From: an uncultured Armatimonadetes bacterium
GTDB taxonomy: Bacteria > Armatimonadota > UBA5829 > DTJY01
Length of the DNA: 64,000 nt
Assembly: GCA_963717145.1 (NCBI GenBank)
Contig: OY970325.1
Coordinates: 4,160,001 to 4,224,000 of the forward strand
Direction of reading: 5' to 3'
Shown: piece after piece, positions 32,021-58,029 of the stretch
Position numbering within the stretch: position 1 is the stretch's first letter
How the letters are laid out: each line of letters opens with the position of its first letter
Made by a program: the position numbers and the translations under genes
The notes under the pieces: model-generated
What the model was told of the DNA's origin: nothing
The model's database searches: none
Seen by the model: only the letters and a program-made list of their open reading frames with translations

Positions 32021-34075
32021 TCAGCCGTCCGCTTCATCGGATTCGCCGGGGTGAGGGCGCTTGGCCACCCAGTAGTAGAGTGCCGATCCCAGGCTGGACA
32101 GAACGAGGCCATGGATAAAGAGCATGTCCTTCAATCCTGCCAGCGAAGCCACAAGCTGGACCAATCCCAGCACGGCGGCCATGATCAGCAGGGCGATCGG
32201 CGTCCGCACGAGCACCTGGCGCATGGGTGGCTTCTTCCGCACATGGAGCGTCCCTCCCCCGCCGGTTATGAGATCCTTGATATAGCGCTCGAAGTCGTTC
32301 CGACTGCGCGGGAGCCCCCTTTCCGGCTTCCCGAAGACCCTGACGACAACCCACTGGCGGACCGATTCCACCTCATACCATATCACGACCATCCGCGCTC
32401 CTTCGCCGGATGAGTAGTCGTTGTTCCAGCGCCTGACCTCCAGTTTTCCGTCAAGGGGAATGGCGACCTCTCTCGATTCCGCGAGCAGGACGAGCTTGCC
32501 GTCCCGGATCCCGAGCAGCGCTCCCTGCCAGACATCATCATCACCGGTGAGTCTTGCATCCACCAGCACCATCGAGCCGATCGTTTCTTTCCCATACTTT
32601 TCGGCGAGTTTGGCCGTTACCCTCGACTGCACACGGGCGGTTTTGCGCCTGTTATAGGCCTCGATAGGTGCCACAATGACCAGCGCGGTGGCCAGGACTC
32701 CGGCGGCGATTATGGCAGCCATCCTCCATCCGGACTGCTCGTACAGGACCGCAAGGAAGAACGATCCGAACATGAAGCTGCATGCCAGGACTATCGCTAC
32801 AATCCATATGGCTATCTCGACCGGGCGGCTGCCTCGCTTCTCGACCTCCGACCGGGGTTCCTCATGGAAGGCGATCGCGTACCGGTCGCTCGGGCCGAAC
32901 TGCACCTCCATCTCGGCACGGCGCTTGGCCTCGCCTACCTGATCGACGCTGAGCCCCGATCTGCGGGCGATGGTCTCGATGTCCTCTGCGGCCGTCGGAT
33001 GGGTGCCCAGGATCCTCGACCACCAGGGGCGGTCGATCGGTAGTTCGTTGAGCATATAGAGCTTGTAGAAGCCGGAGATCGCCGCCCCGGGATTCTCCAG
33101 GACCGCGACGTTGGCGTCGGCCTTCCGCTCAGAGTACCTGGAGTACCAGCGGATGACCAGGCCGGGCAGAATGAACATTGCCATCCAATTCAGGTACTGG
33201 AGGGATCGAAGGTCGGGCGAAGACCTGATGGTCCGCTCGATATAACTGACCGCCCCGTACCAGGCCAGGGCGACGATGATGCAGGCCGGATAGCTGTACT
33301 GCCAGAGAACGACGTCTCCAAGGTGACCCACCTCGTGGGCGATGACGGCATCGACCTCATCCTTGTCGAGTTTCGTTATTAGCTCCTCGCCGAGCCCAAT
33401 GCAACTTCCGGAATGTGCGATCGCACCAACGTAGCCCTCGGGGTAATGCTCGAGGATGCGCACATCGTCCACTTGGACCTTGGACTTCGATGCGATCTCG
33501 ATAACGCGCTTGTAGAGGTCACCGGGTGCAAGGGGCTTCCACCGGCCGATCCCCGCTGCCAGCCGCCCGAGTGCCCATTCGCCGATCCTGCCTGCAACAA
33601 CGATGCTGACGAACAGGCTCAGTGTCGGCATGCCGCCGGTCGCTATCACGTAGAGCTGCGCCAGGAATCCCGTGTATATGAACCCCTGTAGAAACAGCAG
33701 GAACGTGAGCGAGAGCAGGCGGCCATTCCCGGCGATGAACAGCCTGGCCGCTGTCAGTCGGTCGATGCTCGCCTCCCGCCGGCGTCGGGAAAGCCTGGAG
33801 GGGAGGTAGCTTGCGAAGATGTAGGTCAGCAGGGGTCCCGCGCTGAAGGCCGCTGCTTCATAGCGAGTGAGTTTCAGACGTGCGAGCGAAATGATTGCGA
33901 TCACTACCAGTCCGGGCGTGATCCAGTCGAGCACGGTGTTGATGTCTCGGAAATCGGCCCAGGAGTCGCCCGTGTCACGTCTGAGCGCCCGAGTGCCGAG
34001 GGCGAGAATCATGATTGTGGGTCCGAAGCCCAGCAGAGCCCACATCAGCCACGATGGTGAACCGAATGCACCCAT
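32021..34075 (-). CDS. Multi-pass membrane M48 (HtpX/Ste24-like) metalloprotease
   Basis: AVIAHEVGH, SERKAD, GTHP; many hydrophobic segments; probable leaderless start. Confidence 0.8.
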   Translation of the reverse strand: MGAFGSPSWLMWALLGFGPTIMILALGTRALRRDTGDSWADFRDINTVLDWITPGLVVIAIISLARLKLTRYEAAAFSAGPLLTYIFASYLPSRLSRRRREASIDRLTAARLFIAGNGRLLSLTFLLFLQGFIYTGFLAQLYVIATGGMPTLSLFVSIVVAGRIGEWALGRLAAGIGRWKPLAPGDLYKRVIEIASKSKVQVDDVRILEHYPEGYVGAIAHSGSCIGLGEELITKLDKDEVDAVIAHEVGHLGDVVLWQYSYPACIIVALAWYGAVSYIERTIRSSPDLRSLQYLNWMAMFILPGLVIRWYSRYSERKADANVAVLENPGAAISGFYKLYMLNELPIDRPWWSRILGTHPTAAEDIETIARRSGLSVDQVGEAKRRAEMEVQFGPSDRYAIAFHEEPRSEVEKRGSRPVEIAIWIVAIVLACSFMFGSFFLAVLYEQSGWRMAAIIAAGVLATALVIVAPIEAYNRRKTARVQSRVTAKLAEKYGKETIGSMVLVDARLTGDDDVWQGALLGIRDGKLVLLAESREVAIPLDGKLEVRRWNNDYSSGEGARMVVIWYEVESVRQWVVVRVFGKPERGLPRSRNDFERYIKDLITGGGGTLHVRKKPPMRQVLVRTPIALLIMAAVLGLVQLVASLAGLKDMLFIHGLVLSSLGSALYYWVAKRPHPGESDEADG

Positions 34076-34223
34076 GGGCACAGTATAGTTCAACAGGCGG
34101 CACTGCGCAAGGCGTAGTGTGCGAGTGCATCTACTCCCATACTCCCACACCCCCATACTCCCACACTCAACCTTGCGCCCCGATGCCGCAAAGCGTTAGA
34201 ATCATTCCCGGAGGCACAGACCT

Positions 34224-35252
34224 ATGATCATCGCAATGAGAGCCGACGCCCGACCTGAAGACATCGACCGCGTACTGCAACGGATCACCGACCATGGCAT
34301 GACCGCGCTCAACCTGCCCGGCGGCGACCGGACCGTCATCGGGGTCGCAAGCTCGATCCCGGCGGACGTGCGCGAGCCGCTCACCGAGACGCTCCAGGCG
34401 CTCCCCGGTGTCGATCACATCACTCAGGTCAGCCGCATCTACAAGCTCGCATCCAGGGAGTTCCATGCGGCGGATACAGTCGTGAACGTGAAGGGAGTCG
34501 AGATCGGCGGCAATCGCGTGGTGGTCCTGGCCGGCCCGTGCGCCATCGAGAGCCGGGAACAGCTCCTATCCGCGGCCGAGGCGGTCAAGGGCGCGGGTGG
34601 TCGCGTCCTGCGGGGTGGGGCATACAAGCCTCGGACGTCGCCCTATGCGTTCCAGGGACTCGGCGAGGAGGGCCTGAAGCTCCTCAGAGAGATCGGCGAG
34701 GCGACCGGCATGCCCACGATCACCGAGGTGCTCGACCAGCACGATGTCGATGTGGTCGCCGAGCACGCGGACATCCTCCAGATCGGCGCGCGGAACATGC
34801 AGAATTTCCCGCTCCTGGTGGCGGTCGGGCGGACGAAGCATCCCGTGGTCCTCAAGCGGGGATCGAGCGCGACGATCGATGAGCTGATGCACTCCGCTGA
34901 GTACATCCTCAACCAGGGCAACCAGAATGTCATCCTCTGCGAGCGGGGCGTCCATCCGCTCGATCGGACCTACATGCGCAACACGCTCGACCTCTCCGCC
35001 GTGCCGCTGATCCAGGAGATCTCGCATCTCCCGGTGATCGTCGATCCGAGCCACTCGACCGGCGACTGGCGGTTCGTGGCCTCGATGAGCCGGGCGGCGC
35101 TCGCGGCCGGGGCGGACGGTCTGCTGATCGAGGTGCACCCCGATCCGAAGGCAGCGCTCTGCGACGGCCAACAGTCGCTCAAACCCGAGCGCTTCGCGGC
35201 GCTGATGGAGAGCCTCGGGGCGATCGCACAGGCAGTCGGGCGAAAGCTCTAG
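34224..35252 (+). CDS. aroF: 3-deoxy-7-phosphoheptulonate synthase, type I-beta with N-terminal regulatory domain
   Basis: AGPCAIE, GAYKPRTSPY, IGARNMQN, LCERG, VDPSH. Confidence 0.92.
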   Translation: MIIAMRADARPEDIDRVLQRITDHGMTALNLPGGDRTVIGVASSIPADVREPLTETLQALPGVDHITQVSRIYKLASREFHAADTVVNVKGVEIGGNRVVVLAGPCAIESREQLLSAAEAVKGAGGRVLRGGAYKPRTSPYAFQGLGEEGLKLLREIGEATGMPTITEVLDQHDVDVVAEHADILQIGARNMQNFPLLVAVGRTKHPVVLKRGSSATIDELMHSAEYILNQGNQNVILCERGVHPLDRTYMRNTLDLSAVPLIQEISHLPVIVDPSHSTGDWRFVASMSRAALAAGADGLLIEVHPDPKAALCDGQQSLKPERFAALMESLGAIAQAVGRKL

Positions 35253-35449
35253 AACGCGGAAACACAGAAGCAGACGGAAACACGGAGATCTCTATCAGGA
35301 AACCAGGAATCTAGGAAGCCAGGAAGGGAATGGGAAAGTGGTAGACCGGATGATCCCGAATCCCCCATTCTCCCATTCTCCCGTTCGTGGCTTCCTGCCT
35401 TCCTCATAGAGAACTCCGTGTTTCCGTGTTCCTCTGTGCTTCTGTGTTC
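35252..35449. repeat. Nested fold-back built from 8-9-mer simple repeats
   Basis: ACGGAAACACGGAG/CTCCGTGTTTCCGT outer, CAGGAA/TTCCTG middle and GGGAATGGGA/TCCCATTCTCCC inner arms. Confidence 0.7.
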
Positions 35450-35454
35450 GCAGT

Positions 35455-35522
35455 CTGAAAGGGAACGGGCCGCCCCGATTGCTCGGAACGGCCCGCGACG
35501 GAGGTAAGTAAGGGACACGCCT
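35455..35522 (-). ncRNA. Candidate small regulatory RNA with anti-Shine-Dalgarno motif
   Basis: CATAAT -10 at 35534-35529; UCCCUUACUUACCUCC; 14-bp GNRA-capped hairpin fully paired only on the minus strand; pyrimidine tail. Confidence 0.55.
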
Positions 35523-35707
35523 ACTAACATTATGGCTGACCTGTAAGACTTACTTAACCGCACAATTACCAGGTTTTCCCAGTTTTTCGGCTTTCCGTCT
35601 CCCCAACACCTATCATCCGCTCTGTAGAGGACTTTCCCCCGGGACGGAGAAAGCGTTATCAGGAGCACACCGACAGTCTGTGTGCGCGGAATCACGTGGA
35701 GGCAACC

Positions 35708-37126
35708 ATGACAGGTCTAAGTCGCAGGGAATTCCTCGGTATGGCGGCGGCAACTACCGCATCGTTCGCCATCAGCAGCAGGTTCAGTCCGGTGTTGGGC
35801 GCAAACGACACGATCCGCGTGGCGGTCGTCGGCATCAACGGCAGGGGCGACTCTCACATCGGCAGCCTCTTGGGGCTCGAGGGCGTGGAGATCGCCTATC
35901 TGGTCGATCCCGATACCCGGCTGTTCGAGCGCAGGAGCAAGAAGATCACGGATGCGGGCAAGCGGGCGCCGACGTGCGTGCAGGACCTCCGCACGGCGCT
36001 CGATGACAAGGACCTGGATGCGGTCTCGATCGCCTCCTGCAACCATCAGCACTGCATCCAGACCATCTGGGCCTGTCAGGCGGGCAAGGATGTCTACGTC
36101 GAGAAACCCCTGAGCCAGACCGTGCACGAAGGGCGGATCGCAGTCGAGATGGCCCGAAAGTACGGCCGGGTCGTCCAGTACGGCACGGACAAGGGTACAA
36201 AGGGCGATTTGATCGCCGCACTTGCGCGAAAGGGCACTTACGGGAAGTTGCTGGTGTCGCGCGGACTCTGCTACAAGCGCCGCACCAGCATCGGCTTCAA
36301 GCAGGTCAAGAGTCCACCGAGCGAGTTGGATTTTGATCTCTGGTGCGGCCCGGCGGCGAAGAAGGACTATCACGAGAACCTGGTCCATTACAACTGGCAT
36401 TGGTCCTGGGAATACGGAAACGGCGATATCGGCAATCAGGGCGCACACGAGATGCACGCCGCACTACATGCCATCCCCGACGCCACTCTACCGCGCAGCG
36501 TCGTGAGCATCGGCGGACGATTCGGCTACATTGATCAGGGCCAGACAGCCAATACGCAGGTGGCGATGTTCGACTATGGTGATACGCAACTGATCTTCGA
36601 GGTCCGCGGACTGGAAACCGATGACTACTACGGGCAGAAGATCGGTAACATCTTCCACTTCGAGGACGGAGTGGTCGCGGGCGACAAGTTCTACCCCAAC
36701 GGCGGCAAGGAGCCCGAGCCGGTCGTCAAGGTCGAGCCGGACAAGACCAGCAGGAGCGCGAGTTTCCCGGAGTTCATCAAGGTGATGCGCAGCCGCGACA
36801 AAGAGCTGTTCGACTGGAATATCGAGACGGCGCACTACTCATCCGCCCTCTGCCACCTGGCGAACATCTCCCAGCGTCTCGGCACGAGGGTCACATTCGC
36901 GGGGATATCGGATCCCTTCCAGGCGAACGAGTTCGGAAACGAGACTTTCGGGCGCATGGCCGAGCACCTGAAGGCCAACGGCATCGAGGTCGAGCGCGCG
37001 TCATACCGCCTCGGCCGGGAACTGGCATTCGATCCTGCGACCGAGAGGTTCATCGGCGACGAGCAGGCGAACTACATGCTGAAGCGTACGCCCAGGCCGC
37101 CCTTCGTGATCCCGGACAAGGTCTGA
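35708..37126 (+). CDS. Tat-exported Gfo/Idh/MocA oxidoreductase
   Basis: SRREFL, VGINGRG, DVYVEKP, GDIGNQGAH. Confidence 0.9.
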   Translation: MTGLSRREFLGMAAATTASFAISSRFSPVLGANDTIRVAVVGINGRGDSHIGSLLGLEGVEIAYLVDPDTRLFERRSKKITDAGKRAPTCVQDLRTALDDKDLDAVSIASCNHQHCIQTIWACQAGKDVYVEKPLSQTVHEGRIAVEMARKYGRVVQYGTDKGTKGDLIAALARKGTYGKLLVSRGLCYKRRTSIGFKQVKSPPSELDFDLWCGPAAKKDYHENLVHYNWHWSWEYGNGDIGNQGAHEMHAALHAIPDATLPRSVVSIGGRFGYIDQGQTANTQVAMFDYGDTQLIFEVRGLETDDYYGQKIGNIFHFEDGVVAGDKFYPNGGKEPEPVVKVEPDKTSRSASFPEFIKVMRSRDKELFDWNIETAHYSSALCHLANISQRLGTRVTFAGISDPFQANEFGNETFGRMAEHLKANGIEVERASYRLGRELAFDPATERFIGDEQANYMLKRTPRPPFVIPDKV

Positions 37127-37182
37127 AGGGACAGGTTAAAGGTGCTGGGTGTCGGCGGGAACCGCCAGGCCTGAGTGTGCCG

Positions 37183-38280
37183 TTACACTTTGAACCTGAC
37201 GACCATGATGTCGCCGTCCTTTATGACGTAATCCTTGGTCTCCAGCTTCATCAGGCTCGCCGCCTTCGCTGCTTCCCAGGAACCGGCCTTCGCGAAGTCG
37301 TCGTAGGAGACGATCTCCGCGCGGATGAACCCTCGCTCGAGGTCCGAATGGATCTTCCCGGCGGCTTCGACAGCCTTGTCGCCTTTGTTGATCGTCCACG
37401 CCTTGACCTCGTCCTCGCCGGCGGTGAAGAATGAGAGCAGCCCTAACGCGCGGTATGCGCTCTGCACGACCTTATTCCGCGCCGGTTCGGTGATGCCGAG
37501 CGCCTCCAGGTACTCCTTCTCTTCGTCCTCGGGGAGCTGGGCGACCTCCGCCTCGATGTTGGCGGCGAGTTCGATCAGCTCCATGCCCTCGCTCTCGCAG
37601 TAGGCGCGCAGGCCTTCGACGAGCGGGTTGGTCTTGCCGATATCATCCTCGCCCACATTCGCCACGATGATCATCGGTTTCAGCGTCAGGAAGTCGAAGC
37701 TCCGGATCGTCTTGGCCTCATCGTTCGACAGATCAAGCTCCTTGAGCGGTTTCTCGTCTTCGAGCTGCTTCCCGATCTTTTGCATTAGCTCCAGCTCCAT
37801 CGTCTGCGGGCTGCCTGGGACGATCTTCCTGTTATGCATGCTCTTCTCGATGCGCTCGAGCCGCGTCTCGACCAGCGTGAGGTCGGCGAGCATCAACTCA
37901 TCGTTTACCTTGCGGACATCACGGAGCGGATCGAGCCCGTTCTCGGGGGCGGGGTGAGCCGGGCTCTCGAACGCGCGGACGACGTGGATCAGCGCCTCGA
38001 CCGCTCGGATCCCGGTGAAGAAGTCCGTCCCGAAACCGCGTTGGGTCTCGACCCCGATCGGGGCCGCGCCGTCGATGACTTCTATGTGCGCCGGGCTGAT
38101 CTTCTTCGGCTTGCAGACCTCGACGATGTGGTCGAACCGCGCATCCGGCACGGCGATCGTCCCGATGTTGGCCTCCGCTCGCTTTGCTCCGAATTCCGCG
38201 ACGGGCGCCTCGCCGTGGGTCAATGCGTTGAACAAGGTTGTCTTGCCGATAGCCGGCAAACCGATGATTCCGACCTTCAT
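37183..38280 (-). CDS. ychF: Ribosome-binding ATPase YchF
   Basis: GIIGLPAIGKTTLFNALT, FFTAGEDEVKAW, AGKIHSDLERGFIRAE, GDIMVVRF. Confidence 0.92.
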   Translation of the reverse strand: MKVGIIGLPAIGKTTLFNALTHGEAPVAEFGAKRAEANIGTIAVPDARFDHIVEVCKPKKISPAHIEVIDGAAPIGVETQRGFGTDFFTGIRAVEALIHVVRAFESPAHPAPENGLDPLRDVRKVNDELMLADLTLVETRLERIEKSMHNRKIVPGSPQTMELELMQKIGKQLEDEKPLKELDLSNDEAKTIRSFDFLTLKPMIIVANVGEDDIGKTNPLVEGLRAYCESEGMELIELAANIEAEVAQLPEDEEKEYLEALGITEPARNKVVQSAYRALGLLSFFTAGEDEVKAWTINKGDKAVEAAGKIHSDLERGFIRAEIVSYDDFAKAGSWEAAKAASLMKLETKDYVIKDGDIMVVRFKV

Positions 38281-38311
38281 GTCGGCCTCCTGAGCATTCC
38301 TACTGAGCGCC

Positions 38312-38376
38312 GTAGTGGCCGTGCCTCTGTGCCGGCCTCCGATGTGGCCTGGCCGGCACGGAGGCACGGCCACTAC
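38312..38376. repeat. GTAG-type REP doublet, family C
   Basis: Arms match 7751-7815. Confidence 0.85.
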
Positions 38377-38479
38377 GGCGATGATGCCATGAAAATGCGG
38401 GCAGCGTCTCGGTTCGCTGCCCGCGTACTTGCTGGTGATCAGTGCTGATTATACCAGATTCCGGCGGATCCTGCAGTTT

Positions 38480-39805
38480 CTACCGCCACTCCAATATCCG
38501 ATGCGCCTCCTCGGCAGTCGTGATGCCCTCCAACACCCTCTGTCGGGCGTCGTCCACCATCGTCTTGAAGCCGTCCGCAACCGCCTGTGCCAACAGGACG
38601 TCCGGATCGACCTGGCCGCTCGCGATCATCCTGCTCAGGTCACGGTCAATGATCAGCACCTCGTGTAGCTGACTTCGCCCGCGGAAGCCGGACCCCTTGC
38701 ACGTCTCGCATCCCTTGCCGCGCTGGAACTTGGCATTCCCCTCGAGTCCGTGCAGACCCAGGAAGCGGAGGGCCTCCTCTGATGGCGTGTACTCCTCCCG
38801 GCAGTCTGGGCACACCATCCGGGCGAGCCGCGCGGCGACTACGCCGATCAGGTTCTGCCCGATGATCCATGGATCCACCCCGAACGCCGCCATGTGCTGC
38901 GGTATTGAGGTGGCATTGCCCACAGAGGTCTGAGTGAGCACCAGATGTCCCGTGTGTGCTGCCTCCGATGCGAGCACCATCGATTCGTAGTCACGCACCT
39001 CGCCGATCATGAGCACATCGGGGTCCTGGCGCAGGTAGGCGCGTACCGCCGACGCGAAGGTGAGGCCGGCTCGGGGGTTCACCTGCGTCTGCTGTATGCC
39101 TCTGAGTTGGTACTCGACAGGATCCTCCACAGACACGATGCTGATGTCGGACCTGGGTAGCTCCAGTATCATGGAGTACATCAGCGTCGTCTTGCCGGAA
39201 CCGGCCGGGCCCGTGCAGACTATGATCCCATTCGGCCGCCGTACAAGTTCCCTCACGGTCTCCAGTTGTTCGTCGGAAAAGCACATCTTGTCCAGGCCGA
39301 GGAGCGGTGTCCCTCTGTCGAAGATGCGCAGTACCATCTTCAAGCCGTATATCGACGGTACGATCGATACGCGCAGATCATACTCCTTGCCGTCTCTCCT
39401 CACGGGAAGCCGCCCATCCTGGGCGATTCGGTTCTCAGTGAGCGATACCTCGGCCATCATCCTGACGCGCGCCGTCACAGCGTCCTGCTCCTTTTTCGAG
39501 AGCGTTCTGTCGGGCCGCAGAACGCCGTCGATCCTATACCTGATGTCCATTCCGTCAGCCGTAGGGTCGAAGTGGATATCTGAGGCGCCGCTCTCGATGC
39601 CTTTCATAATGATCTCGTTGGCCATCTTGATGACCCACACTTCGTCCGCGGCCTGCGTGTCGGCCAGTACGCGCCTGGCCGTCTCGAGTTCGCGCTGGCA
39701 GCCGTGGCACCGCGCCAGGTGCTCGTCGACCTCCTTGCCAAACTCCGCGCTCAACTCGCCCTTCAGATAGGCGATCAACTCATCACGAATCTCTTCGCAT
39801 TTCAT
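38480..39805 (-). CDS. zf-HC2/ZAS anti-sigma domain fused to PilB/GspE-family ATPase
   Basis: MKC...HLARCHGC; ASDIHFDP, RYRIDG, QDGR, GPAGSGKTT, VEDPVE, RQDPDVLMIGEVRD, TGHLV, CPDC/CETC. Confidence 0.9.
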   Translation of the reverse strand: MKCEEIRDELIAYLKGELSAEFGKEVDEHLARCHGCQRELETARRVLADTQAADEVWVIKMANEIIMKGIESGASDIHFDPTADGMDIRYRIDGVLRPDRTLSKKEQDAVTARVRMMAEVSLTENRIAQDGRLPVRRDGKEYDLRVSIVPSIYGLKMVLRIFDRGTPLLGLDKMCFSDEQLETVRELVRRPNGIIVCTGPAGSGKTTLMYSMILELPRSDISIVSVEDPVEYQLRGIQQTQVNPRAGLTFASAVRAYLRQDPDVLMIGEVRDYESMVLASEAAHTGHLVLTQTSVGNATSIPQHMAAFGVDPWIIGQNLIGVVAARLARMVCPDCREEYTPSEEALRFLGLHGLEGNAKFQRGKGCETCKGSGFRGRSQLHEVLIIDRDLSRMIASGQVDPDVLLAQAVADGFKTMVDDARQRVLEGITTAEEAHRILEWR

Positions 39806-39859
39806 CTGATATCCTCCATTGTAGGAAAAGCATGGTTAATGGGCAGACGGCGTGAACCA

Positions 39860-40426
39860 TCAACCATCAGCCATCAACCATTTCCTCAGTATTCTTACTG
39901 CCGCCGACATCCTGGATTTCACGGTTCCAATCGGTATCTCCAGAATCTCGGCGATCTCTGCATACTTCATCTCCTGGAACTGGCTCAACACAAAGACCAG
40001 CCGATAGTGATCCGGCAACTCCGCGATCGCCTGCCTGATCCTTCGATCCTCATACCGCCGAATGAGAAGCTTCTCGAGGCCGGATTCGTCCTCGATAGGC
40101 TGCCATGTCTCCTCAAGGAACATCGCTTCCGGACGGCATTTGCGCCTCCTTAGCGCCGACAGCCAGTGGTTGCGAGCGATCTTGAAGATGTACGACCGGA
40201 ACGCTCCCGTCGGCTCGTATCTGACTCTCGCGAGCCAGAGGCAGACGAACACCTCCTGCGCGTAGTCCTGGGCCGCATCCGCGTTCCAGCACAGGGAGTA
40301 GAAGAAGCCCGAGAGCTGCCGCCGGTACCTGCGGATCAGCTCATCGAACGCTTCCTCGTCGCCCATTTTCACTTGGAGCATCAATTGTGTTTCCGGATCG
40401 CAGCACAGTTGCGCGCATTCCATCAT
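39860..40426 (-). CDS. ECF RNA polymerase sigma factor
   Basis: GDEEAFDEL, DYAQEVF, FKIARN, YAEIAEILEIPIGTVKSRM. Confidence 0.92.
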   Translation of the reverse strand: MMECAQLCCDPETQLMLQVKMGDEEAFDELIRRYRRQLSGFFYSLCWNADAAQDYAQEVFVCLWLARVRYEPTGAFRSYIFKIARNHWLSALRRRKCRPEAMFLEETWQPIEDESGLEKLLIRRYEDRRIRQAIAELPDHYRLVFVLSQFQEMKYAEIAEILEIPIGTVKSRMSAAVRILRKWLMADG

Positions 40427-40490
40427 CGCCGCCTCACTTATACAGAATGCTTTTCGCGCCAAAAGGTTCGCGCAACGCATGAAGGTTTCC

Positions 40491-40519
40491 TTGACAAGCA
40501 ATGTGGGCCACACTACAAT
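40491..40519 (+). promoter_or_regulatory. Sigma70 promoter of trxA
   Basis: TTGACA-17 bp-TACAAT. Confidence 0.75.
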
Positions 40520-40557
40520 GGGCGTCGAACGACATAATGGGATCGAGGAGGAACGAA

Positions 40558-40881
40558 ATGAGCAATGCACTGGCGGTTACCGCCGAGGATTTCGATAAGG
40601 AAGTACTTCAGTCCGAAATACCCGTGCTCGCCGATTTCTGGGCGGACTGGTGTGGGCCGTGCAAGGCCCTGGGCCCGACGATCGATGCGATCGCAGATGA
40701 GACCGCCGGAAAACTCAAGGTAGTGAAGGTCGATACGGACAAGGCGCCTTCCGTCGCCGCGAAGTATGGCATCATGAGCATCCCGACGCTGATCCTGTTC
40801 AAGAAGGGCGATGTCATCGAGCAGATGGTCGGCATGATGCCCAAGCAGTCGATCATGGCGAAGGTAACGCCTCACCTGTAG
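40558..40881 (+). CDS. trxA: Thioredoxin
   Basis: DFWADWCGPCK, SIPTL. Confidence 0.95.
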   Translation: MSNALAVTAEDFDKEVLQSEIPVLADFWADWCGPCKALGPTIDAIADETAGKLKVVKVDTDKAPSVAAKYGIMSIPTLILFKKGDVIEQMVGMMPKQSIMAKVTPHL

Positions 40882-40890
40882 AAACCTATG

Positions 40891-40975
40891 TCCTACTCGT
40901 ACTCCTAATCGTAATCGTACTCGTGAGCGCTTCGTCCCGATCCGAGTACGATTACGATTAGGAGTACGAGTAGGA
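40891..40975. repeat. Inverted hexamer-repeat hairpin
   Basis: TCCTACTCGTACTCCTAATCGTAATCGTACTCG and its exact reverse complement. Confidence 0.85.
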
Positions 40976-41042
40976 ACGCCAAGAAAACGGCTGTGAATTC
41001 TACCACGAACCGGTATCTCAACAATTCTGCGCAAGAACTTGG

Positions 41043-41072
41043 TTGACAGCACGGATTGTACCCGGCTATAAT
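41043..41072 (+). promoter_or_regulatory. Sigma70 promoter of the sugar ABC ATPase
   Basis: TTGACA-18 bp-TATAAT. Confidence 0.7.
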
Positions 41073-41219
41073 CGTGAAGGTGGGCGCAATCTCGGCTCTT
41101 GTCTCCGAAAGCGTCATCTCGCATCCGGAACACGCCGGCCCAACGCAATGCGCCTGCCTTAGCGTTCAGGGCACGAAACGGCGGACGAGTCGGCATCTGC
41201 ATGAGGAGGAACCAGAAAT

Positions 41220-42329
<1,110 letters not shown>

Positions 42330-42362
42330 GTGCGGAATGTGGAGTGTAGAGTGTAGAGTAAG

Positions 42363-42389
42363 TGGCCGGCCTCAGCGCCGGCCATTTTC
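42363..42389 (+). terminator. Rho-independent terminator
   Basis: TGGCCGGC-ctcagc-GCCGGCCA-TTTT. Confidence 0.6.
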
Positions 42390-42418
42390 ATGTCAAACTG
42401 CACACTATGTGACCAATA

Positions 42419-43213
42419 GTGAAGAGACAAAGAGTTAAGACACCGACCCCCTATCAAGATATCAACGATCTGCTCGCCGAATGGATGGAGGGAGCGAAGA
42501 ACATTCTCGGCGTGAATGTGGTCGGTTTGTACTTGTCCGGCTCTCTAACCTACGGCGATTTTATGCCTGGACGAAGCGATATAGATTTGCAGGCCGTGGT
42601 GCATCGCCCGTTGAGCCAAGACGATCTAGAGTCAGTTGAGCATTTGCATAAAGAGTTGAATGAGCGCTATCCGGCGTGGAAAAGCCGTTTGGAATGCTCC
42701 TATGTCCCGCTTGAACTCATGCAGGAAACATTGCCCCCGAAGAATCCCCGGCCGTGGTGGGGTTTTGATACGCTCTACGCGGAAGCTCCGGCAGGCAATG
42801 AGTGGATTATCAATCATTACTTTCTTGCAAAACACGGCGTTGCACTTTTCGGCCCTGATTTCGACACGCTCATTCCTCCCCTCGACATGCGAGAAGTGAA
42901 GAAAGCAAGCGCGCGCGATCTGTTCAAGGAATGGGAGCCGAAAATCAATGATTACGAGTGGCTTTCAGACAGCCATTGTCAAGCGTATATTGTCTTGAAC
43001 ATTTGCCGCATTTTGCATGCGGTCGTTGGCGATGGCCCTGGTTCCAAGAAGGTTGCGGCGAAATGGGTGAAATCAGTCTATCCGCAGTGGATAGACCTGA
43101 TACAGGAAGCTGAGCAGTGGGTATACGGCAAGGAAATGAATCGACAGGCGGAAGCTATAGCCTTCATCAGATTTGCGATTGAGAAAGTGAACCAGACAGA
43201 TCTTCTGAAATGA
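42419..43213 (+). CDS. Aminoglycoside adenylyltransferase-like nucleotidyltransferase (DUF4111 type)
   Basis: GLYLSGSL...SDIDL, VLNICRI, SKKVAAKW; visibly AT-richer than flanks. Confidence 0.75.
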   Translation: MKRQRVKTPTPYQDINDLLAEWMEGAKNILGVNVVGLYLSGSLTYGDFMPGRSDIDLQAVVHRPLSQDDLESVEHLHKELNERYPAWKSRLECSYVPLELMQETLPPKNPRPWWGFDTLYAEAPAGNEWIINHYFLAKHGVALFGPDFDTLIPPLDMREVKKASARDLFKEWEPKINDYEWLSDSHCQAYIVLNICRILHAVVGDGPGSKKVAAKWVKSVYPQWIDLIQEAEQWVYGKEMNRQAEAIAFIRFAIEKVNQTDLLK

Positions 43214-43223
43214 GTACTCAGCT

Positions 43224-44006
43224 ATGACATATGATTTCAATGGCAGGGATTACCGAAAAGCATCCGACCACCAGAAGGAATGGGGTCAACGCATCATTGC
43301 AGAACTGGGCTTGAACGGGCAGGATCGAATCCTCGACCTCGGATGCGGTGACGGCACGCTCACTTCGAACCTGGCCGATCTCGTGCCTCAGGGTAGCGTA
43401 CTGGGCATAGATGCCTCAGAGGGCATGCTCACTGCTGCTCGGCAGCATGTAAAGCCCAACTTGAGCTTCCGCCTGCAGGACATCAATGAGATCGCCTACT
43501 CCTGCGAGTTCGATATCGTCTTCTCGAATGCGACACTCCACTGGGTCAAGGATCATCGCCGGCTGCTGCGAAACGTAATGCATGCTCTGGCTCGTGGAGG
43601 GATCGTCCGATTCAACTTCGCCGGTGACGGGAACTGCTCGAACTTTTTTGCCGTTGTCCGTGAGGTCATGGCGGATGATCGATTCAGCCCTCATTTCGCT
43701 GATATGGAATGGCCGTGGTATATGCCCGCTTTGGCGGAATATGAAGCGCTGGTGCAGGAATTCCCATTTACCGATGTCCAGGTTTGGGAGGAAAACGCAG
43801 ACCGCTTCTTCCCGGACGCGGAGACGATGACCCGATGGATCGACCAGCCGAGCCTGGTGCCGTTTCTACCGCATCTGCCGTCCGAATCCCAGGGGGAGTT
43901 CCGAGACCTGGTCGTTGATCGAATGATTCGGCTTACGGAGCAGCCGGACGGCAGGTGCTTCGAGACGTTTCGCCGAATCAATCTTCTCGCGCGAAAACAG
44001 CCATGA
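43224..44006 (+). CDS. Class I SAM-dependent methyltransferase (Tam-like)
   Basis: ILDLGCGDG, FDIVFSNATLHW. Confidence 0.85.
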   Translation: MTYDFNGRDYRKASDHQKEWGQRIIAELGLNGQDRILDLGCGDGTLTSNLADLVPQGSVLGIDASEGMLTAARQHVKPNLSFRLQDINEIAYSCEFDIVFSNATLHWVKDHRRLLRNVMHALARGGIVRFNFAGDGNCSNFFAVVREVMADDRFSPHFADMEWPWYMPALAEYEALVQEFPFTDVQVWEENADRFFPDAETMTRWIDQPSLVPFLPHLPSESQGEFRDLVVDRMIRLTEQPDGRCFETFRRINLLARKQP

Positions 44007-44881
44007 AGAAGATCATGATCACCGGTGGAAGCGGAATGCTCGGGAGCTACGCGGCGACTCGGGCCGCCGCTCAGGGATGGGATGTCACCGCGACGTACTT
44101 CGGCAATCCCGTCGAACTCCCGGGCGTCCGGATGGTGCGCCTCGACCTCGCCGATCCGTGGGACGTGGTAGGGAGCATCTGCCCGGATGTCATCATCCAC
44201 ACGGCCGCGCGGGTCAAGCCGGACGTCTGTGAGGAAGAGAAGCGGCGCGCATTCGACGCCAACGTCATCGGCACGGACAACCTCCTCCGGTCCGCCGAGT
44301 GCGTCCATGCGCATTTCGTCCACGTCTCGACCGACCTCGTCTTCAGCGGCGAGCACAATCCCTACTCCGAAGGCGATCTGCTCAGCCCGCCGAACTATTA
44401 CGGCCTGACCAAGGCCGCCGCCGAAGCAGCCGTTCTCGCCGCCGGGACCGAGACCGCCATCGTCCGCACCTCGATCATCTACGGCCCGAGGATGTCTGCG
44501 CACCTGAACTCGTTCTCGGACAAGATCATCGAGTCGCTCCGGGCCGGAAAGCCGATGACCGCGTTCACCGATCAGCGCCGGTCCCCGATCCCGGCGCGGA
44601 ACCTGGCGGACGTGCTCCTCGAGATCGCGGATCGTCGGCTCACCGGCATCTTCCACGCGGTCTGTCCAGAGTCGAGCGCGCGGTACGACTTCGCGGTCAA
44701 GGTCGCCGAGACCTTCGGCCTCGACGCGTCGCTCATCCGTCCCGCCACGATGGACCAGTTCCCCTCCGCCGCCTTCCGCCCGCACACCATCATCCTCGAC
44801 ACGTCCGCCACCCAGGCGCGTCTGTCCACCCGCCTCCTCGGCTTCGAAGAAGGTATCATGGCACTACTTCAGCGAACGTAA
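44003..44881 (+). CDS. dTDP-4-dehydrorhamnose reductase-like SDR (RfbD/RmlD family)
   Basis: TGGSGMLG, VSTDLVF, YGLTK, DQRRSP. Confidence 0.8.
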   Translation: MKKIMITGGSGMLGSYAATRAAAQGWDVTATYFGNPVELPGVRMVRLDLADPWDVVGSICPDVIIHTAARVKPDVCEEEKRRAFDANVIGTDNLLRSAECVHAHFVHVSTDLVFSGEHNPYSEGDLLSPPNYYGLTKAAAEAAVLAAGTETAIVRTSIIYGPRMSAHLNSFSDKIIESLRAGKPMTAFTDQRRSPIPARNLADVLLEIADRRLTGIFHAVCPESSARYDFAVKVAETFGLDASLIRPATMDQFPSAAFRPHTIILDTSATQARLSTRLLGFEEGIMALLQRT

Positions 44882-44884
44882 TGC

Positions 44885-45022
44885 GTAGGGGCGAAACATT
44901 GGCCGATCATGCTCCACCGAGTGATCGCAGCACATGCCAATGGTTCGCCCCAGACCAGGCGAACCATTGGCGATTGCCAAGGCAGGTCACCGGTATCAGA
45001 TGGGCCAACGTTTCGCCCCTAC
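44885..45022. repeat. REP doublet, family B, upstream of the RAYT
   Basis: GTAGGGGCGAAACATTGGCC (44885) and GGCCAACGTTTCGCCCCTAC (45003-45022) with internal partial copies. Confidence 0.85.
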
Positions 45023-45041
45023 AGGTAGGTGGGAGGACAAC

Positions 45042-45650
45042 ATGCCGTTTGATCCGGAACATCATCACCGCCGTTCGATCAGGGTGTCAGGCCACGACTA
45101 CACCGTCGGCATGTACTTCGTTACGATGTGTACGCAGGGTCGCCAATGCCTTTTCGGCGAGATCATTGGTGGAACAATGGACTTGAGCCCCGCAGGCAGG
45201 ATTGTGCATGCGTACTGGGAGAGCATACCCAGGCGTTTCCCCCACGTGGTCCCAGATGCCTTTGTGATCATGCCGAATCATCTACACGGGATCCTCTGGT
45301 TCCGAGAACGGGGCGAACCATTGGCGGCTAGATCTGATCAGTTGGTCGACGTTCGAAGGGCCAATGTTTCGCCCCTACACCATGGCGTTGACCGGCGGGC
45401 CAATGTTTCGCCCCTACACGCTACGCCCGACGGAGCCCCTGCCGGTTCGCTCGGAGCTATGATTCAGGGCTTCAAGTCCTCCACGACGATCAGGATCAAC
45501 AGGGTAAACCGCACTCCGGGTCGAACAATATGGCAGCGCAACTACTACGAACACATCGTCCGCAGCGAGAAATCGCTTGATGCCATCCGGCAATACATCG
45601 AGGCCAATCCGACCGGCTGGCTGCACGACCCGGAGTATGTCAACCAGTGA
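45042..45650 (+). CDS. REP-associated tyrosine transposase (RAYT, Y1 HUH)
   Basis: RRSIR, YFVTMCT, VIMPNHLHGI (HUH), WQRNYYEHIVR, YIEANP. Confidence 0.9.
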   Translation: MPFDPEHHHRRSIRVSGHDYTVGMYFVTMCTQGRQCLFGEIIGGTMDLSPAGRIVHAYWESIPRRFPHVVPDAFVIMPNHLHGILWFRERGEPLAARSDQLVDVRRANVSPLHHGVDRRANVSPLHATPDGAPAGSLGAMIQGFKSSTTIRINRVNRTPGRTIWQRNYYEHIVRSEKSLDAIRQYIEANPTGWLHDPEYVNQ

Positions 45651-45663
45651 CATGGAGGAACGT

Positions 45664-46998
45664 ATGCGCACTATCATTACACTGATCGTCTTGATCGTCA
45701 TCACGGTATCGGCCCAGGGGGCGTACCAACCCACGTGGGAATCGATCGATTCGCGGCCCCTGCCGGCGTGGTACGACGACGCCAAGTTCGGCATCTTCAT
45801 CCACTGGGGCGTCTACTCCGTCCCCTCATGGGGGCCGAAGGGCAAGTACTCCGAGTGGTACTGGAACGACATGCAGAACAAGAACGGGGAGACGTGGAAG
45901 TATCATGTCGAGAAGTATGGCGAGAAGTTCCAGTACCAGGATTTCGCTCCGATGTTCAAGGCCGAGCTGTTCAACCCCGACCGGTGGGCCGACATCTTCG
46001 CCCGCTCAGGCGCGAAGTACATCGTCCTGACCTCGAAGCATCACGAGGGATTCTGTCTATGGCCGAGCGCTGAGTCCTGGAACTGGAACAGCGTCGATAT
46101 CGGCCCGCACCGCGACCTCTGCGGTGATCTCTCAGCATCCGTGAAGGCAAAGGGCCTGAGGATGGGTTTCTACTACTCGATGTACGAGTGGTTCAACCCG
46201 ATCTACCGCTCCGATCCCAAGCGCTATGTCGAGCAGCACATGCTTCCCCAGATGAAAGACCTGGTGACGCGGTACCAGCCGTCGCTCGTCTGGACCGACG
46301 GCGAATGGGATCACCCGAGCGACACGTGGCGCAGCACGGAATTCCTCGCATGGCTCTACAACGAGTCGGCGGTCAAGGATGAGGTCGTCGTCGATGATCG
46401 GTGGGGCAAGGGCACTCGCGGCAAACACGGCGGGTTCTACACGACCGAGTATGGCGGCGGTGTTGATAACCCCGCACTCGCAACGCACAAGTGGGAAGAG
46501 TGCCGGGGCATGGGCGCGTCGTTCGGCTACAACCGCAATGAGGACCTGGGCGATTACAGGTCCGCGACCGAGATGATCCACCTGCTCGCAGACCTCGTCA
46601 GCAGGGGCGGAAACCTGCTCCTCGACATCGGCCCGACCGCCGATGGGCGCATTCCAGTCATCATGGAGCAGCGGCTGATCGAGATCGGCGACTGGCTGAA
46701 GGTCAACGGCGAGGCGATCTACGGCACTAGGCCCTGGAGGATCACGTCCGAGAACGACGTCTGGTATACATCCAAGGGCGACACGGTCTACGCGATCGTA
46801 AAGCGTTGGCCGGGCAAGGAACTAGTCCTTAGCGAACCGAGAGCCTCCGCAGGCGCGGCCGTCACGATGCTCGGGGTGGCTCAGCCGCTGAAGTGGAAAA
46901 GTAAGGACGCCATGATGTACATCGAGGTTCCGCAGCTCTCCGTAGATGAAATCCCCTGCCGCCATGCGTATGCCTTCAAGCTCACTGGCGTGGAGTAG
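45664..46998 (+). CDS. Secreted alpha-L-fucosidase (GH29)
   Basis: KFGIFIHWG, TSKHHEGF, WTDGEW, GNLLLDIGP, EAIYGTRP. Confidence 0.92.
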   Translation: MRTIITLIVLIVITVSAQGAYQPTWESIDSRPLPAWYDDAKFGIFIHWGVYSVPSWGPKGKYSEWYWNDMQNKNGETWKYHVEKYGEKFQYQDFAPMFKAELFNPDRWADIFARSGAKYIVLTSKHHEGFCLWPSAESWNWNSVDIGPHRDLCGDLSASVKAKGLRMGFYYSMYEWFNPIYRSDPKRYVEQHMLPQMKDLVTRYQPSLVWTDGEWDHPSDTWRSTEFLAWLYNESAVKDEVVVDDRWGKGTRGKHGGFYTTEYGGGVDNPALATHKWEECRGMGASFGYNRNEDLGDYRSATEMIHLLADLVSRGGNLLLDIGPTADGRIPVIMEQRLIEIGDWLKVNGEAIYGTRPWRITSENDVWYTSKGDTVYAIVKRWPGKELVLSEPRASAGAAVTMLGVAQPLKWKSKDAMMYIEVPQLSVDEIPCRHAYAFKLTGVE

Positions 46999-55959: not shown

Positions 55960-56712
55960 ATGATTTGCAAATCCGACGTGGTCGTGCTAGCATGGAGGCC
56001 GAACGAAACGATGCTGAAGCATGTGCTTCGGCCCAATGCTCAGGACTGCGTTACGGCGCTCATGAATAATCCTGCACAGGAAACCGACCTGATCCGCGGC
56101 GATCGTCCGGTCGCGGCGGAGACGGCGAATAGCATCGCCCGGGACGGCGACTCGGACCTAGAGCTGGTGATCCGCTCGCAGTCCGGGGACGTCGCGGCGT
56201 TCGGGCAACTGGTGGACCGCCACAAGCGGATGGTCTACGGCATCATTTCACGCATGGTCAATAACCGTGATGACGCCGACGACCTCGCGCAGGATGTGTT
56301 CGTCGCTGCATACAGACATATCGGGGGCTTTCGGCGGGATGCCAAGTTCACGACGTGGCTGCATACGATCACGGTGAATACTACCTTGAAGCGGTTGAAC
56401 AGGATGAAGCGTCAGACAACGGTCTCCATAGACGATCCGGACACCGGCCTCGAGCCGGTGATACATGACGAGAACGAACCGTCCCCGATGGACCTGCTTC
56501 AGGACAAGCAGCGCGCGGAAGCCGTGCGCAAAGCGGTAGATTCTCTTCCGGATAAGCATCGGATCGTCGTTGTTATGCATTATTTCGAGCAATACTCCTG
56601 CGATGAGATTGCGGCTGCGCTCAAGTGCTCGATCGGGACGGTCTGGTCCCGCCTGCACTATGCATGCAAGAAACTGCAGAAGGAGCTGTGCTGGATCGAA
56701 CAGGGGTCATGA
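55960..56712 (+). CDS. ECF RNA polymerase sigma factor (start uncertain)
   Basis: GDVAAFGQLV, DLAQDVF, FTTWL, EIAAALKCSIGTVWSRL. Confidence 0.9.
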   Translation: MICKSDVVVLAWRPNETMLKHVLRPNAQDCVTALMNNPAQETDLIRGDRPVAAETANSIARDGDSDLELVIRSQSGDVAAFGQLVDRHKRMVYGIISRMVNNRDDADDLAQDVFVAAYRHIGGFRRDAKFTTWLHTITVNTTLKRLNRMKRQTTVSIDDPDTGLEPVIHDENEPSPMDLLQDKQRAEAVRKAVDSLPDKHRIVVVMHYFEQYSCDEIAAALKCSIGTVWSRLHYACKKLQKELCWIEQGS

Positions 56713-56713
56713 T

Positions 56714-58029
56714 ATGAAGTGTTCAAAGTTCCGAAAACTGCTGATGCCGTATGCCGAGGGCTCTCTCTCGAAAGAGATTGCCGACTCCCTCGATCAACAT
56801 CTGGCGGAGTGCGAGTCGTGCGCCCGGGAGCTTCGATCGCTCGCCTGCACGGTCGGCGTACTCAAGCAGGTCGAGTACCCGGCGATGGATCCGGCGATTG
56901 ACCTGCGTAGTCGGGTATTGGCGCAGATATCCCCGCAGCCCGCGCGCAAGTCATGGTGGCAGTCGGCGAGGCTTCAGGCGTACTCGGCGGCGGCCGCCGG
57001 ACTGCTGCTGATCGCCCTCGTTGGTGGCGGAATGTGGTCGATGCTCGAACGCGGCATGGAGGTCACTGCAACTCGGGAAGTCGGCCAGAGCGTGGACACT
57101 CCGGAGCAGCCTTCGAAGGCCCCTGCGCCTTCTGAGCCGCAAATCGTGCTCCAGGGGCCGCAGCCCGGTGTCTCACCGCGGAAGTCGGCCGTGAAGAAGA
57201 TCGAGCGCAGATCGCCGGGAGAGAAGGCCGTGTTCCCACTTATGACACGCAACTGGTCAGATGCCGACGGGGATCGTGCATATGGTATGTACCGGGATTT
57301 CGGCAATCGGTTTGACCGTAGCGCACCGGCTGTGTCATCGCCAGCGGACGAGGAGCCCGCGCCGTGCCGGAGTCATCCGCCAACCACTGGAATATGTTCG
57401 GGTACGACGCCGTCGGGGATGAACCCCAGCCGCCCGCAGGGCCTTCTCGGCCACCGTCGCAGGAACTGGCCGAGAGCACCAAGCAGTCGGATTCCGGAGG
57501 AAACCAGTTCTTTGCGTACCGTGGTGGGTCGGAAGGCGGCTATGCCGGGAGACCGATGGCCAACGCCACTGGCGAAGCGGCCTCCCCGACGCTTCCCCCA
57601 GGAAATGTTAGGGGTGCTCTCACTGCCGACCAGCCGGTGGCCGGGACGGACTTCAGCCTTAGCATGAAATCGGACGCCCGCATGGCCGCCGGAAATGCCA
57701 CCTCGTTCGCGGATGAGATGCTCGGTGTGGACATGGATGCTCTCGAGACGAAGCTCAGGGACTTCCCATCGAGCGTGACCACGATCACCGATCTGATGCT
57801 GAAGTACCGTGAAGCGGGGCGTCCGAGGGATGAGTATCAGATGGCGCAGAGGCTCACGAAGCTCGATCCCGACAACTCGGGTCACTGGCTGTCGAGGGCT
57901 CAGGCGGCGGACCGAGTCCCGATGCCGAAAACGGCGGAGATGTGCTACCGGCGAGCGATCAAGCTCGGCCTGAAGGGCGAGGAACTCGGCCGCGCTCAGG
58001 AGCGTGTGAAGGTGCTGGAGAAGAAGTAG
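56714..58029 (+). CDS. ZAS anti-sigma factor, single TM helix, C-terminal TPR-like domain (frameshift near 57360)
   Basis: MKC...HLAECESC; TM AAAAGLLLIALVGGG; TPR-like LTKLDPDNSGHWL..A...YRRAIKL in ORF 57364-58029. Confidence 0.75.

Follow-up and report, generated by a model that had tools for sequence, protein, structure and literature searches.

The gene pair and its conservation

The window analysed here is a stretch of 64,000 nucleotides from an uncultured Armatimonadetes bacterium (contig OY970325.1, positions 4,160,001 to 4,224,000), and the subject of this work is a pair of neighbouring genes within it: a gene for a sigma factor of the extracytoplasmic function (ECF) type and, directly downstream, an open reading frame (ORF) that joins a zinc-binding anti-sigma (ZAS) domain of the zf-HC2 family to the core of a GspE/PilB-type secretion ATPase of the T2SSE family (Table 1). 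An original prediction, made from the DNA letters, had singled out the pair as an ECF sigma factor followed by a ZAS-T2SSE fusion, with a spacing of 54 bp and a GGAGG ribosome-binding site. The spacing and the ribosome-binding site can both be read in the sequence, every domain named is matched by its Pfam family above the cut-off, and the statements made there about the sequence are all correct, although the placement of both genes on the minus strand of the window was left unmentioned.

Table 1. Features of the sigma factor-ATPase fusion locus. Positions are those of the window; nt, nucleotides; aa, amino acids.
Feature	Position	Strand	Description
ECF-type operon promoter	40444..40469	-	GAACCTTTT (-35), 10 nt, GCATTCT (-10); sigma ATG 17 nt downstream
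ECF (group IV) sigma factor gene	39860..40426	-	188 aa; stop 39860-39862
Spacer, sigma stop to fusion start	39806..39859	-	54 nt; read from the sequence
GGAGG ribosome-binding site of fusion gene	39813-39817	-	7 nt 5' of ATG
Fusion gene	38480..39805	-	441-aa ORF, N-terminus MKCEEIRDEL
ZAS anti-sigma domain	39641..39805	-	residues 1-55; three helices, ligands C3/H29/C33/C36
N2 domain, GspE/PilB-type ATPase	39290..39640	-	residues 56-172; T2SSE match from residue 52
C-terminal ATPase domain (CTD)	38480..39289	-	residues 173-441 + stop; Walker A/B, Asp box, tetracysteine
Intrinsic-terminator-like hairpin	38397..38424	-	10 pairs, 9 G-C, then ATTTTC; 56 nt past fusion stop

The sigma factor, which has regions 2 and 4 only, scores 51.6 bits with Sigma70_r2 and 61.4 bits with Sigma70_r4_2, in each case more than the Pfam cut-off, and reaches the ECF superfamily model TIGR02937 with 97.4 bits (cut-off 42.9). 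It reaches none of the NCBIfam equivalog cut-offs, the best being PRK12513 (123.3 vs 206 bits). The nearest solved relatives of its profile are 6in7_B, deposited under the title 'RNA polymerase sigma-H factor', and 8z6g_B, followed by SigW and RpoE. Its start is likely the ATG at 40426, and a longer ORF of 236 aa can be ruled out at the same level of confidence, because the conserved promoter described below sits inside that longer frame. In the fusion protein, the zf-HC2 match (PF13490) covers residues 3-37 with 32.5 bits (cut-off 22.2) and the T2SSE match (PF00437) covers residues 52-436 with 339.8 bits (cut-off 24.9), the two lying in one frame.

Whether the fusion is confined to this assembly had been set beforehand as a test, and it is found well beyond it. 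Thirty-eight of the best 120 protein clusters in a collection of 5.8 billion proteins share the architecture (identities 41-76%), taken here as an H-x3-C-x2-C motif in the first 70 residues together with a length below 520 aa. The remaining clusters are canonical MshEN + T2SSE proteins of 550-680 aa, save five shorter ones without the motif. T2SSE is matched in all 27 aligned members and zf-HC2 in 26 of them (E <= 0.001). A profile of the first 60 residues, run against a library of 1.84 billion representatives at 50% identity, returned 13 full-length representatives (436-452 aa) among the best 150, each with both domains above the Pfam cut-offs, and the ESM Atlas, which lacks the window protein and was queried with the homologue P0034, contains a 165-member cluster with both families in which Armatimonadota is the commonest phylum. 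A search of 401 genomes of the phylum, with residues 1-75 as query, gave 30 best loci, of which 26 (the window's own genome counted) were fusion genes, spread over 14 coded families; of the other four, one is interrupted within the ZAS domain by the end of its contig and three encode other ZAS proteins. Of 10 other genomes in the window's own family, 2 have the fusion and a further one has it truncated at the edge of a contig; its distribution is thus patchy. The same N-terminal 75 residues gave no match to plasmids and phages by tblastn.

The pairing with the sigma factor, likewise claimed as something to be looked for among homologues, is strict. A sigma gene adjoins the fusion gene in 26/26 fusion loci. 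In 25 of them a homologue of the window's sigma stands immediately upstream, on the same strand; genome L037/L060 has the reversed order, with the sigma gene 360 nt downstream of the fusion. Recurrence of the architecture and its neighbouring sigma gene in 25 genomes besides this one goes far beyond chance. In 10 of 21 loci the sigma stop and the start of the fusion gene share the overlap ATGA, and in 15 of the 21 the two overlap or are separated by 3 nt or fewer. Over some 7 kb to either side, no other gene cluster is common to at least 4 of the 21 loci, so the unit consists of the two genes alone. The identity matrices of the sigma factor and the ZAS domain correlate with r = 0.85, a value reached in 0 of 2000 permutations; this covariation shows co-inheritance only, not binding. 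An assembly artefact or chimeric frame was considered and rejected because the architecture is conserved in so many clusters and genomes, and we are close to certain that the conserved operon and the fusion are real. In seven sequencing runs matching words turn up at a low fraction (0.05-0.07 of those sampled); none of the seven is listed as an RNA run.

A scan of a genome collection found the pair in three Armatimonadetes/Armatimonadota records, one of which stops at a contig end within the ZAS domain, and also in L067, a record labelled uncultured Desulfobulbus sp. The latter shares synteny with the window, at 81% identity for the ABC ATPase and 58% for the thioredoxin, and has a GC content of 43% vs 61%; its label, to be taken with caution, seems doubtful, unless the block was transferred. 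Four of ten source entries looked up for the fusion proteins carry names, which are TadA, GspE or PilB-like and never anti-sigma.

Two further groups of proteins turned up in the profile searches. P0175, from the representative library, was entertained as a natural sigma-ZAS fusion and rejected: two Clp_N repeats, and no sigma factor, precede its zf-HC2 and T2SSE domains (471 aa, C-terminus cut). Judged by this protein, the ZAS-ATPase module can evidently bear a further N-terminal domain of the adaptor type. Many of the best ZAS-profile matches (P0121-P0270) are proteins of 300-480 aa with three separate ZAS-like stretches and are unrelated to the fusion.

The flanking genes encode YchF, thioredoxin, an M48 peptidase, DAHP synthase and a GFO/IDH/MocA oxidoreductase and, further, a MalK-type ABC ATPase, a nucleotidyltransferase, a methyltransferase, RmlD and a fucosidase. 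The locus has no GC anomaly, and PADLOC returned weak P-loop matches only. The terminator-like hairpin past the fusion gene may end the two-gene operon before ychF; it was called by a consensus scan only, which gave 3 sites in the 4-kb region vs 2.5 expected. Only the window and three close relatives have the thioredoxin gene and the MalK-type ABC ATPase gene upstream of the sigma gene, and thioredoxin was rejected as a conserved partner, being confined to these four related genomes and present at none of the other loci examined. It is transcribed divergently from the pair, and a near-perfect sigma-70 promoter (TTGACA-17-TACAAT, 11/12) lies before it at 40491-40519 (+), back to back with the ECF promoter. 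Elsewhere in the window a second, ordinary ECF sigma factor gene (55960-56712, +) has a zf-HC2 gene directly 3' of it (56714-57667, +), whose 317-aa product has a C-terminal part without a recognised family; this pair offers an internal comparator for the arrangement of sigma and ZAS genes.

The two halves of the fusion protein

The N-terminal segment MKC...HLARCHGC had been read as a ZAS motif, a reading borne out by the zf-HC2 match and by near-invariant ligands. These consist of an upstream cysteine and an H-x3-C-x2-C motif; Cys3 is kept in 55 of 56 fusion members, and H29, C33 and C36 are kept in all 56. A profile of the family matches sigma-binding domains of known structure, namely RslA (E 1.2e-4), RsiW (0.0047), ChrR (0.012) and DdvA (0.025), and the RsiW alignment spans Met1 and Cys3 through the HCC motif. 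The single ZAS sequence gave no significant match to solved structures. Because of the homology, the invariant ligands and the strict gene pairing, it is likely that the domain is the anti-sigma factor of the neighbouring sigma.

An AlphaFold2 model built from 27 sequences (mean pLDDT 91, pTM 0.84) places the ZAS helices at residues 3-14, 20-32 and 34-53, and the helix two residues further on (56-71) is the first of the N2 domain. The junction in this model contains no linker, no disorder and no membrane segment, and given the two-residue gap between the helices, the ZAS domain would abut the moving N2 domain directly. No membrane helix is found anywhere in the fusion protein (highest 19-residue Kyte-Doolittle mean 1.41), in keeping with the earlier claim that it is soluble.

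The remainder of the protein is the full PilB/GspE core that had been announced, with all of its motifs legible in the translation: Walker A (G199-P-A-G-S-G-K-T-T207), the Asp box (E227-D-P-x-E231), Walker B (D261-P-D...G268-E269) and the tetracysteine motif typical of the GspE/PilB subgroup (C332/C335 and C366/C369). Absence of the N1/MshEN domain and an altered His box had also been claimed. The N1 domain docks the motor to its machine. There is no match to PF05157 (MshEN/N1) in the fusion protein, while the canonical matches among the best 120 clusters all carry it, and in the His box (TGHLVLTQTS) H287 is kept and the second histidine is replaced by S294. The fusion also misses the equivalog cut-offs for GspE (TIGR02533, 416.5 vs 630.25 bits) and PilB (TIGR02538, 371.2 vs 675.65 bits).

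We compared residues across 56 fusion and 77 canonical sequences, the latter being the best matches to the fusion and not a balanced sample. The nucleotide-binding residues are largely retained in the fusions: the Walker A lysine in 52/56, Glu269 in 51/56, the Asp box positions in 51-56 of 56, and the N2 arginines R91, R113 and R132 in 56/56. The tetracysteine motif is retained in 54-56 of 56. Other positions are relaxed. The second histidine of the His box is present in 42/56 fusions vs 77/77 canonical proteins and R126 in 23/56 vs 77/77, and the positions of S291, T292, T295 and N296 are invariant in the canonical set and relaxed in the fusions. Column entropies are higher in the fusions than in the canonical proteins, both in N2 (1.72 vs 1.05) and in the CTD (1.46 vs 0.85). 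Compared with five relatives, the fusion core reaches identities of 57, 54, 46, 41 and 43%, where a canonical PilB-type core from the window's genome reaches 85, 77, 77, 75 and 71%; the fusion ATPase thus diverges faster than its canonical paralogue. A quick maximum-likelihood tree, which is unrooted and whose canonical rows were chosen as best matches, contains one branch (SH-aLRT 98) that splits 58 fusion rows from 43 canonical rows, compatible with a single origin of the fusion ATPases.

Four full-length PilB/GspE paralogues are encoded in the genome itself, along with several PilT-like genes, and platform (T2SSF) genes stand beside four ATPase loci at 2.50, 3.01, 4.52 and 4.74 Mb. The statement that no pilin, platform or secretin gene lies near the fusion agrees both with the 9 flanking ORFs scanned (32021-46998), which contain no pilus or type II secretion system (T2SS) family, and with the genome's 18 T2SSF matches, none of which falls in the window. 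Relaxed His-box and N2 positions, the missing N1 domain, the lack of a nearby platform gene and the faster divergence together support the proposal, made from the start, that this is a secretion ATPase put to a different use.

Two observations concern related ATPase genes. In the genome of G085/L043, a 389-aa ATPase without a ZAS domain is encoded directly 3' of the fusion (L066:4557-5723, +); it matches T2SSE only, belongs to the same ATPase clade and is 54% identical to the window core. A corresponding copy turned up neither in the window's genome nor in any of the four other relatives searched. Outside the window, at G000:C1:2504586-2505808 (-), a GspE/PilB-like core lies beside a platform gene in two adjacent pieces in different frames, matching T2SSE positions 3-130 and 122-368; this gene may be frameshifted or split.

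Promoter, proposed working and alternatives

The promoter of the pair has a shape that we take to resemble RpoE/AlgU-type promoters. In 13 of 21 loci the sigma gene is preceded by the motif GAAC(C/A)TTT(T/C)-N10-xC(A/G)TT, its -10 element being mostly GC(A/G)TTCT, and in 7 more distant loci GAACC, a spacer and a GTT-containing -10-like element can be made out by eye in the same place. In the one remaining locus no element was seen by eye within the 460 nt examined. At the locus with reversed gene order (L060:7001-9255, +) the sigma gene has a GAACC...GTATAAT-like element of its own. The whole genome was scanned with a position weight matrix, with strict and loose patterns, and with up to two mismatches allowed. 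In its 5.37 Mb the operon promoter is the sole exact site, there are no one-mismatch sites, and the 14 two-mismatch sites are about what chance would give, so that the scan produced nothing above chance level besides the operon itself. No pilus or thiol theme was seen among the genes 3' of the few partial sites (from an ORF listing, with no family scan), and the motif stands at none of the genome's thioredoxin or thiol genes. Three of five relatives searched contain the pattern once, at the sigma gene (one of these genomes measures 8.2 Mb); the other two, with variant -10 elements, have no match. Since the motif before the sigma gene is conserved and occurs nowhere else in the genome, the two-gene operon is very probably autoregulated.

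On this basis we propose a self-contained autoregulated operon in which an ECF sigma factor is paired with a cytoplasmic ZAS anti-sigma domain built on an N1-less GspE/PilB-type ATPase that would serve as its sensing module; taken as a whole, we consider this description evenly balanced between right and wrong. The three-helix ZAS domain would bind the sigma factor 1:1 and keep it away from RNA polymerase. The ATPase part would no longer drive a pilus or secretion system and would instead act as an input module, in which ATP binding or hydrolysis, together with N2-CTD closure and hexamer assembly, shifts the N2 helix beside the ZAS domain. The position of that helix would set whether the sigma factor is held or freed, and freed sigma would fire its own operon promoter along with any targets not yet recognised. 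Candidate signals include the energy or nucleotide state of the cell, docking to an idle pilus or T2SS platform, and mixing into PilB hexamers; that release follows nucleotide state, platform occupancy or mixed hexamers is speculation. The part of the proposal that makes the ATPase a sensor or gate, rather than an output, is tentative and somewhat less probable than not. A more elaborate version is rather unlikely: a hexameric secretion-type ATPase would form a nucleotide-gated cage with up to six sigma factors on the face where N1 normally meets the platform, released jointly on nucleotide change or on docking or mixing with real pilus/T2SS machinery, in the manner of an FlgM-like checkpoint that reports machine status or energy charge to RNA polymerase.

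Several observations weigh against a sensing ATPase with an anti-sigma domain. The operon's own promoter is the only recognisable site, so no output beyond the ATPase is visible. Most members keep all catalytic residues, which is compatible with a working motor, and the make-up of the canonical set, noted above, bears on the comparison that suggests relaxation. The profile matches to the Protein Data Bank (PDB) are modest, with RslA alone below 1e-3. In the model only three ZAS helices are free, and the fourth helix of a class I anti-sigma domain, which is said to contact sigma region 2, would correspond to the first helix of the N2 fold.

The single promoter site fits equally well a scheme in which the ATPase is itself the product. 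The sigma factor would then transcribe essentially nothing but its own operon, and feedback would set the amount of a specialised N1-less pilus or secretion ATPase with a PilT-like layout; the ZAS domain would tether the sigma factor, each new ATPase silencing one sigma, and sigma occupancy might in turn regulate the ATPase, much as other N-terminal signalling domains may act in PilB-like proteins. In favour of this are a promoter that is unique down to one mismatch in this genome and single in three relatives, the retention of most catalytic residues, the existence of other T2SSE clusters with N-terminal Response_reg or cNMP_binding domains, and the relative in which a ZAS-less copy of the same ATPase follows directly downstream. 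We nevertheless consider it fairly unlikely, since the fusion diverges faster and has relaxed His-box and N2 positions at which canonical proteins do not vary, no N1 domain is present, and no platform, pilin or secretin partner lies nearby. Moreover, ECF target promoters are often weaker than the autoregulated one, and a blank scan does not equal an empty regulon. An improbable alternative is a thiol or redox switch of the RsrA kind, in which oxidation of the zinc cysteines frees the sigma factor and the ATPase is passenger or effector. Soluble ZAS proteins are often redox sensors, according to PMC8999054 and PMC7406223, the window and three close relatives have a divergent thioredoxin gene upstream, and the NCBIfam RsrA model gives a weak match (26.1 bits vs a cut-off of 62.5). 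This reading is rated low because the residues flanking the cysteines differ from the RsrA determinants: E39, E40, L45 and E46 of RsrA, as given by Jung et al. 2011 (PMC3177212), correspond here to A31, R32, Q37 and R38, and the acidic and leucine flanks are absent both from the window protein and from the family consensus EHLARCxGCRRELE, which resembles the redox-insensitive RsiW. In addition, thioredoxin adjoins the unit in only 4 related genomes, and the promoter motif precedes no thioredoxin or thiol gene.

It is more improbable still that the zinc finger does not bind the sigma and only caps, structurally or for oligomerisation, an orphan ATPase that chances to share a transcript with an ECF sigma and may be regulated by it. 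Such a role would suit a short domain of three helices with no free helix IV in the model and with weak similarity to solved anti-sigma domains, but the CHCC ligands are invariant and have the spacing of RsiW, zf-HC2 is matched above cut-off in 26 of 27 members, and strict adjacency with frequent start/stop overlap is typical of sigma/anti-sigma pairs. The ordinary ECF and zf-HC2 pair in the same window shares this layout. We continue with the reading in which a ZAS anti-sigma domain is carried by a sensing ATPase. If it is true, an anti-sigma domain on the P-loop motor of T2SS and type IV pili would add an ATP- or assembly-gated mechanism, and the fusion would be a direct physical link of a secretion-motor fold to transcription. 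The system is small, with two genes, one genome-unique promoter and no membrane parts, which would make its reconstruction simple, whether in vitro or in E. coli; the unit could serve as an orthogonal and possibly nucleotide-responsive switch. Since annotation pipelines name the fusion proteins TadA, GspE or PilB in the four named entries, counts of pilus and secretion genes in Armatimonadota may be inflated by a regulator.

Comparison with known systems

The original prediction knew of no described ECF group with this architecture. Our full-text literature search agrees, finding no published description of a ZAS-T2SSE anti-sigma factor, though the group-by-group supplements of Casas-Pastor 2021 could hold one. 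The terms ATPase, T2SSE, pilus and Armatimonad are absent from the accessible main text of that paper (PMC7826278), which reports soluble anti-sigma factors for 10 ECF groups, and the terms ATPase and secretion are absent from the accessible part of Casas-Pastor et al. 2020 (PMC7406223). A 2022 review (PMC8999054) distinguishes three mechanisms of soluble anti-sigma factors (conformational change, partner switching and a mechanosensing complex) and mentions the unstudied soluble ZAS groups ECF270/271 without detail. What appears to be new is the C-terminal ATPase module on an otherwise known type of soluble ZAS anti-sigma factor.

The fusion shares its anti-sigma half with RsiW-SigW of Bacillus subtilis (5wuq) and RslA-SigL of Mycobacterium tuberculosis (3hug). 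All have an N-terminal zinc anti-sigma domain with Cys3 followed about 26 residues later by H-x3-C-x2-C, and all are encoded directly after an ECF sigma gene; RsiW and RslA are the best PDB matches of the family profile, and SigW is among the best for the sigma profile. RsiW is freed by regulated proteolysis. Both it and RslA are anchored in the membrane, whereas the fusion has no membrane helix and passes directly from its third helix into the ATPase. A soluble ZAS protein with the same CHCC spacing is RsrA, the partner of SigR in Streptomyces coelicolor, whose first two ligands are numbered C11 and H37. H37, C41 and C44 are named in PMC3177212. RsrA has redox determinants flanking its cysteines, which the fusion lacks, and it has no fused enzyme. 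In logic, the closest precedent is ChrR, which regulates RpoE in Rhodobacter sphaeroides (2q1z/2z2s) and which, in PMC8999054, is described as soluble, with a ZAS domain at its N-terminus, which holds the sigma factor, and a cytoplasmic sensor at its C-terminus. The C-terminal module of ChrR is small and cupin-like, whereas that of the fusion is a P-loop ATPase of about 385 residues from a hexamer-forming family.

The ATPase half has its counterparts in GspE/EpsE, PilB and PilF (4ksr, 5tsg, 5oiu), to whose N2 and CTD domains residues 51-438 of the fusion align with E values of 1e-80 to 1e-92. It has in common with them both Walker motifs (A and B), the Asp box, the tetracysteine zinc motif and the N2 arginines. 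Unlike GspE and PilB, the fusion has a ZAS domain in place of N1/MshEN and no adjacent platform gene, falls below the equivalog cut-offs, evolves faster and has a His box that has decayed in 14 of 56 members and in the protein of the window. A looser parallel is FlgM-sigma28, in which an anti-sigma factor is coupled to the state of an export and assembly machine. FlgM is the secreted substrate of that machine and not an ATPase, and is unrelated to the fusion in sequence, so the likeness is one of analogy only. Regulatory domains at the N-terminus of T2SSE proteins do have a precedent in clusters of the ESM Atlas with the architectures Response_reg-MshEN-T2SSE and cNMP_binding-MshEN-T2SSE. These clusters keep MshEN, and their added domains receive signals, whereas a ZAS domain binds a transcription factor, such that in the fusion information could run from the ATPase to transcription.

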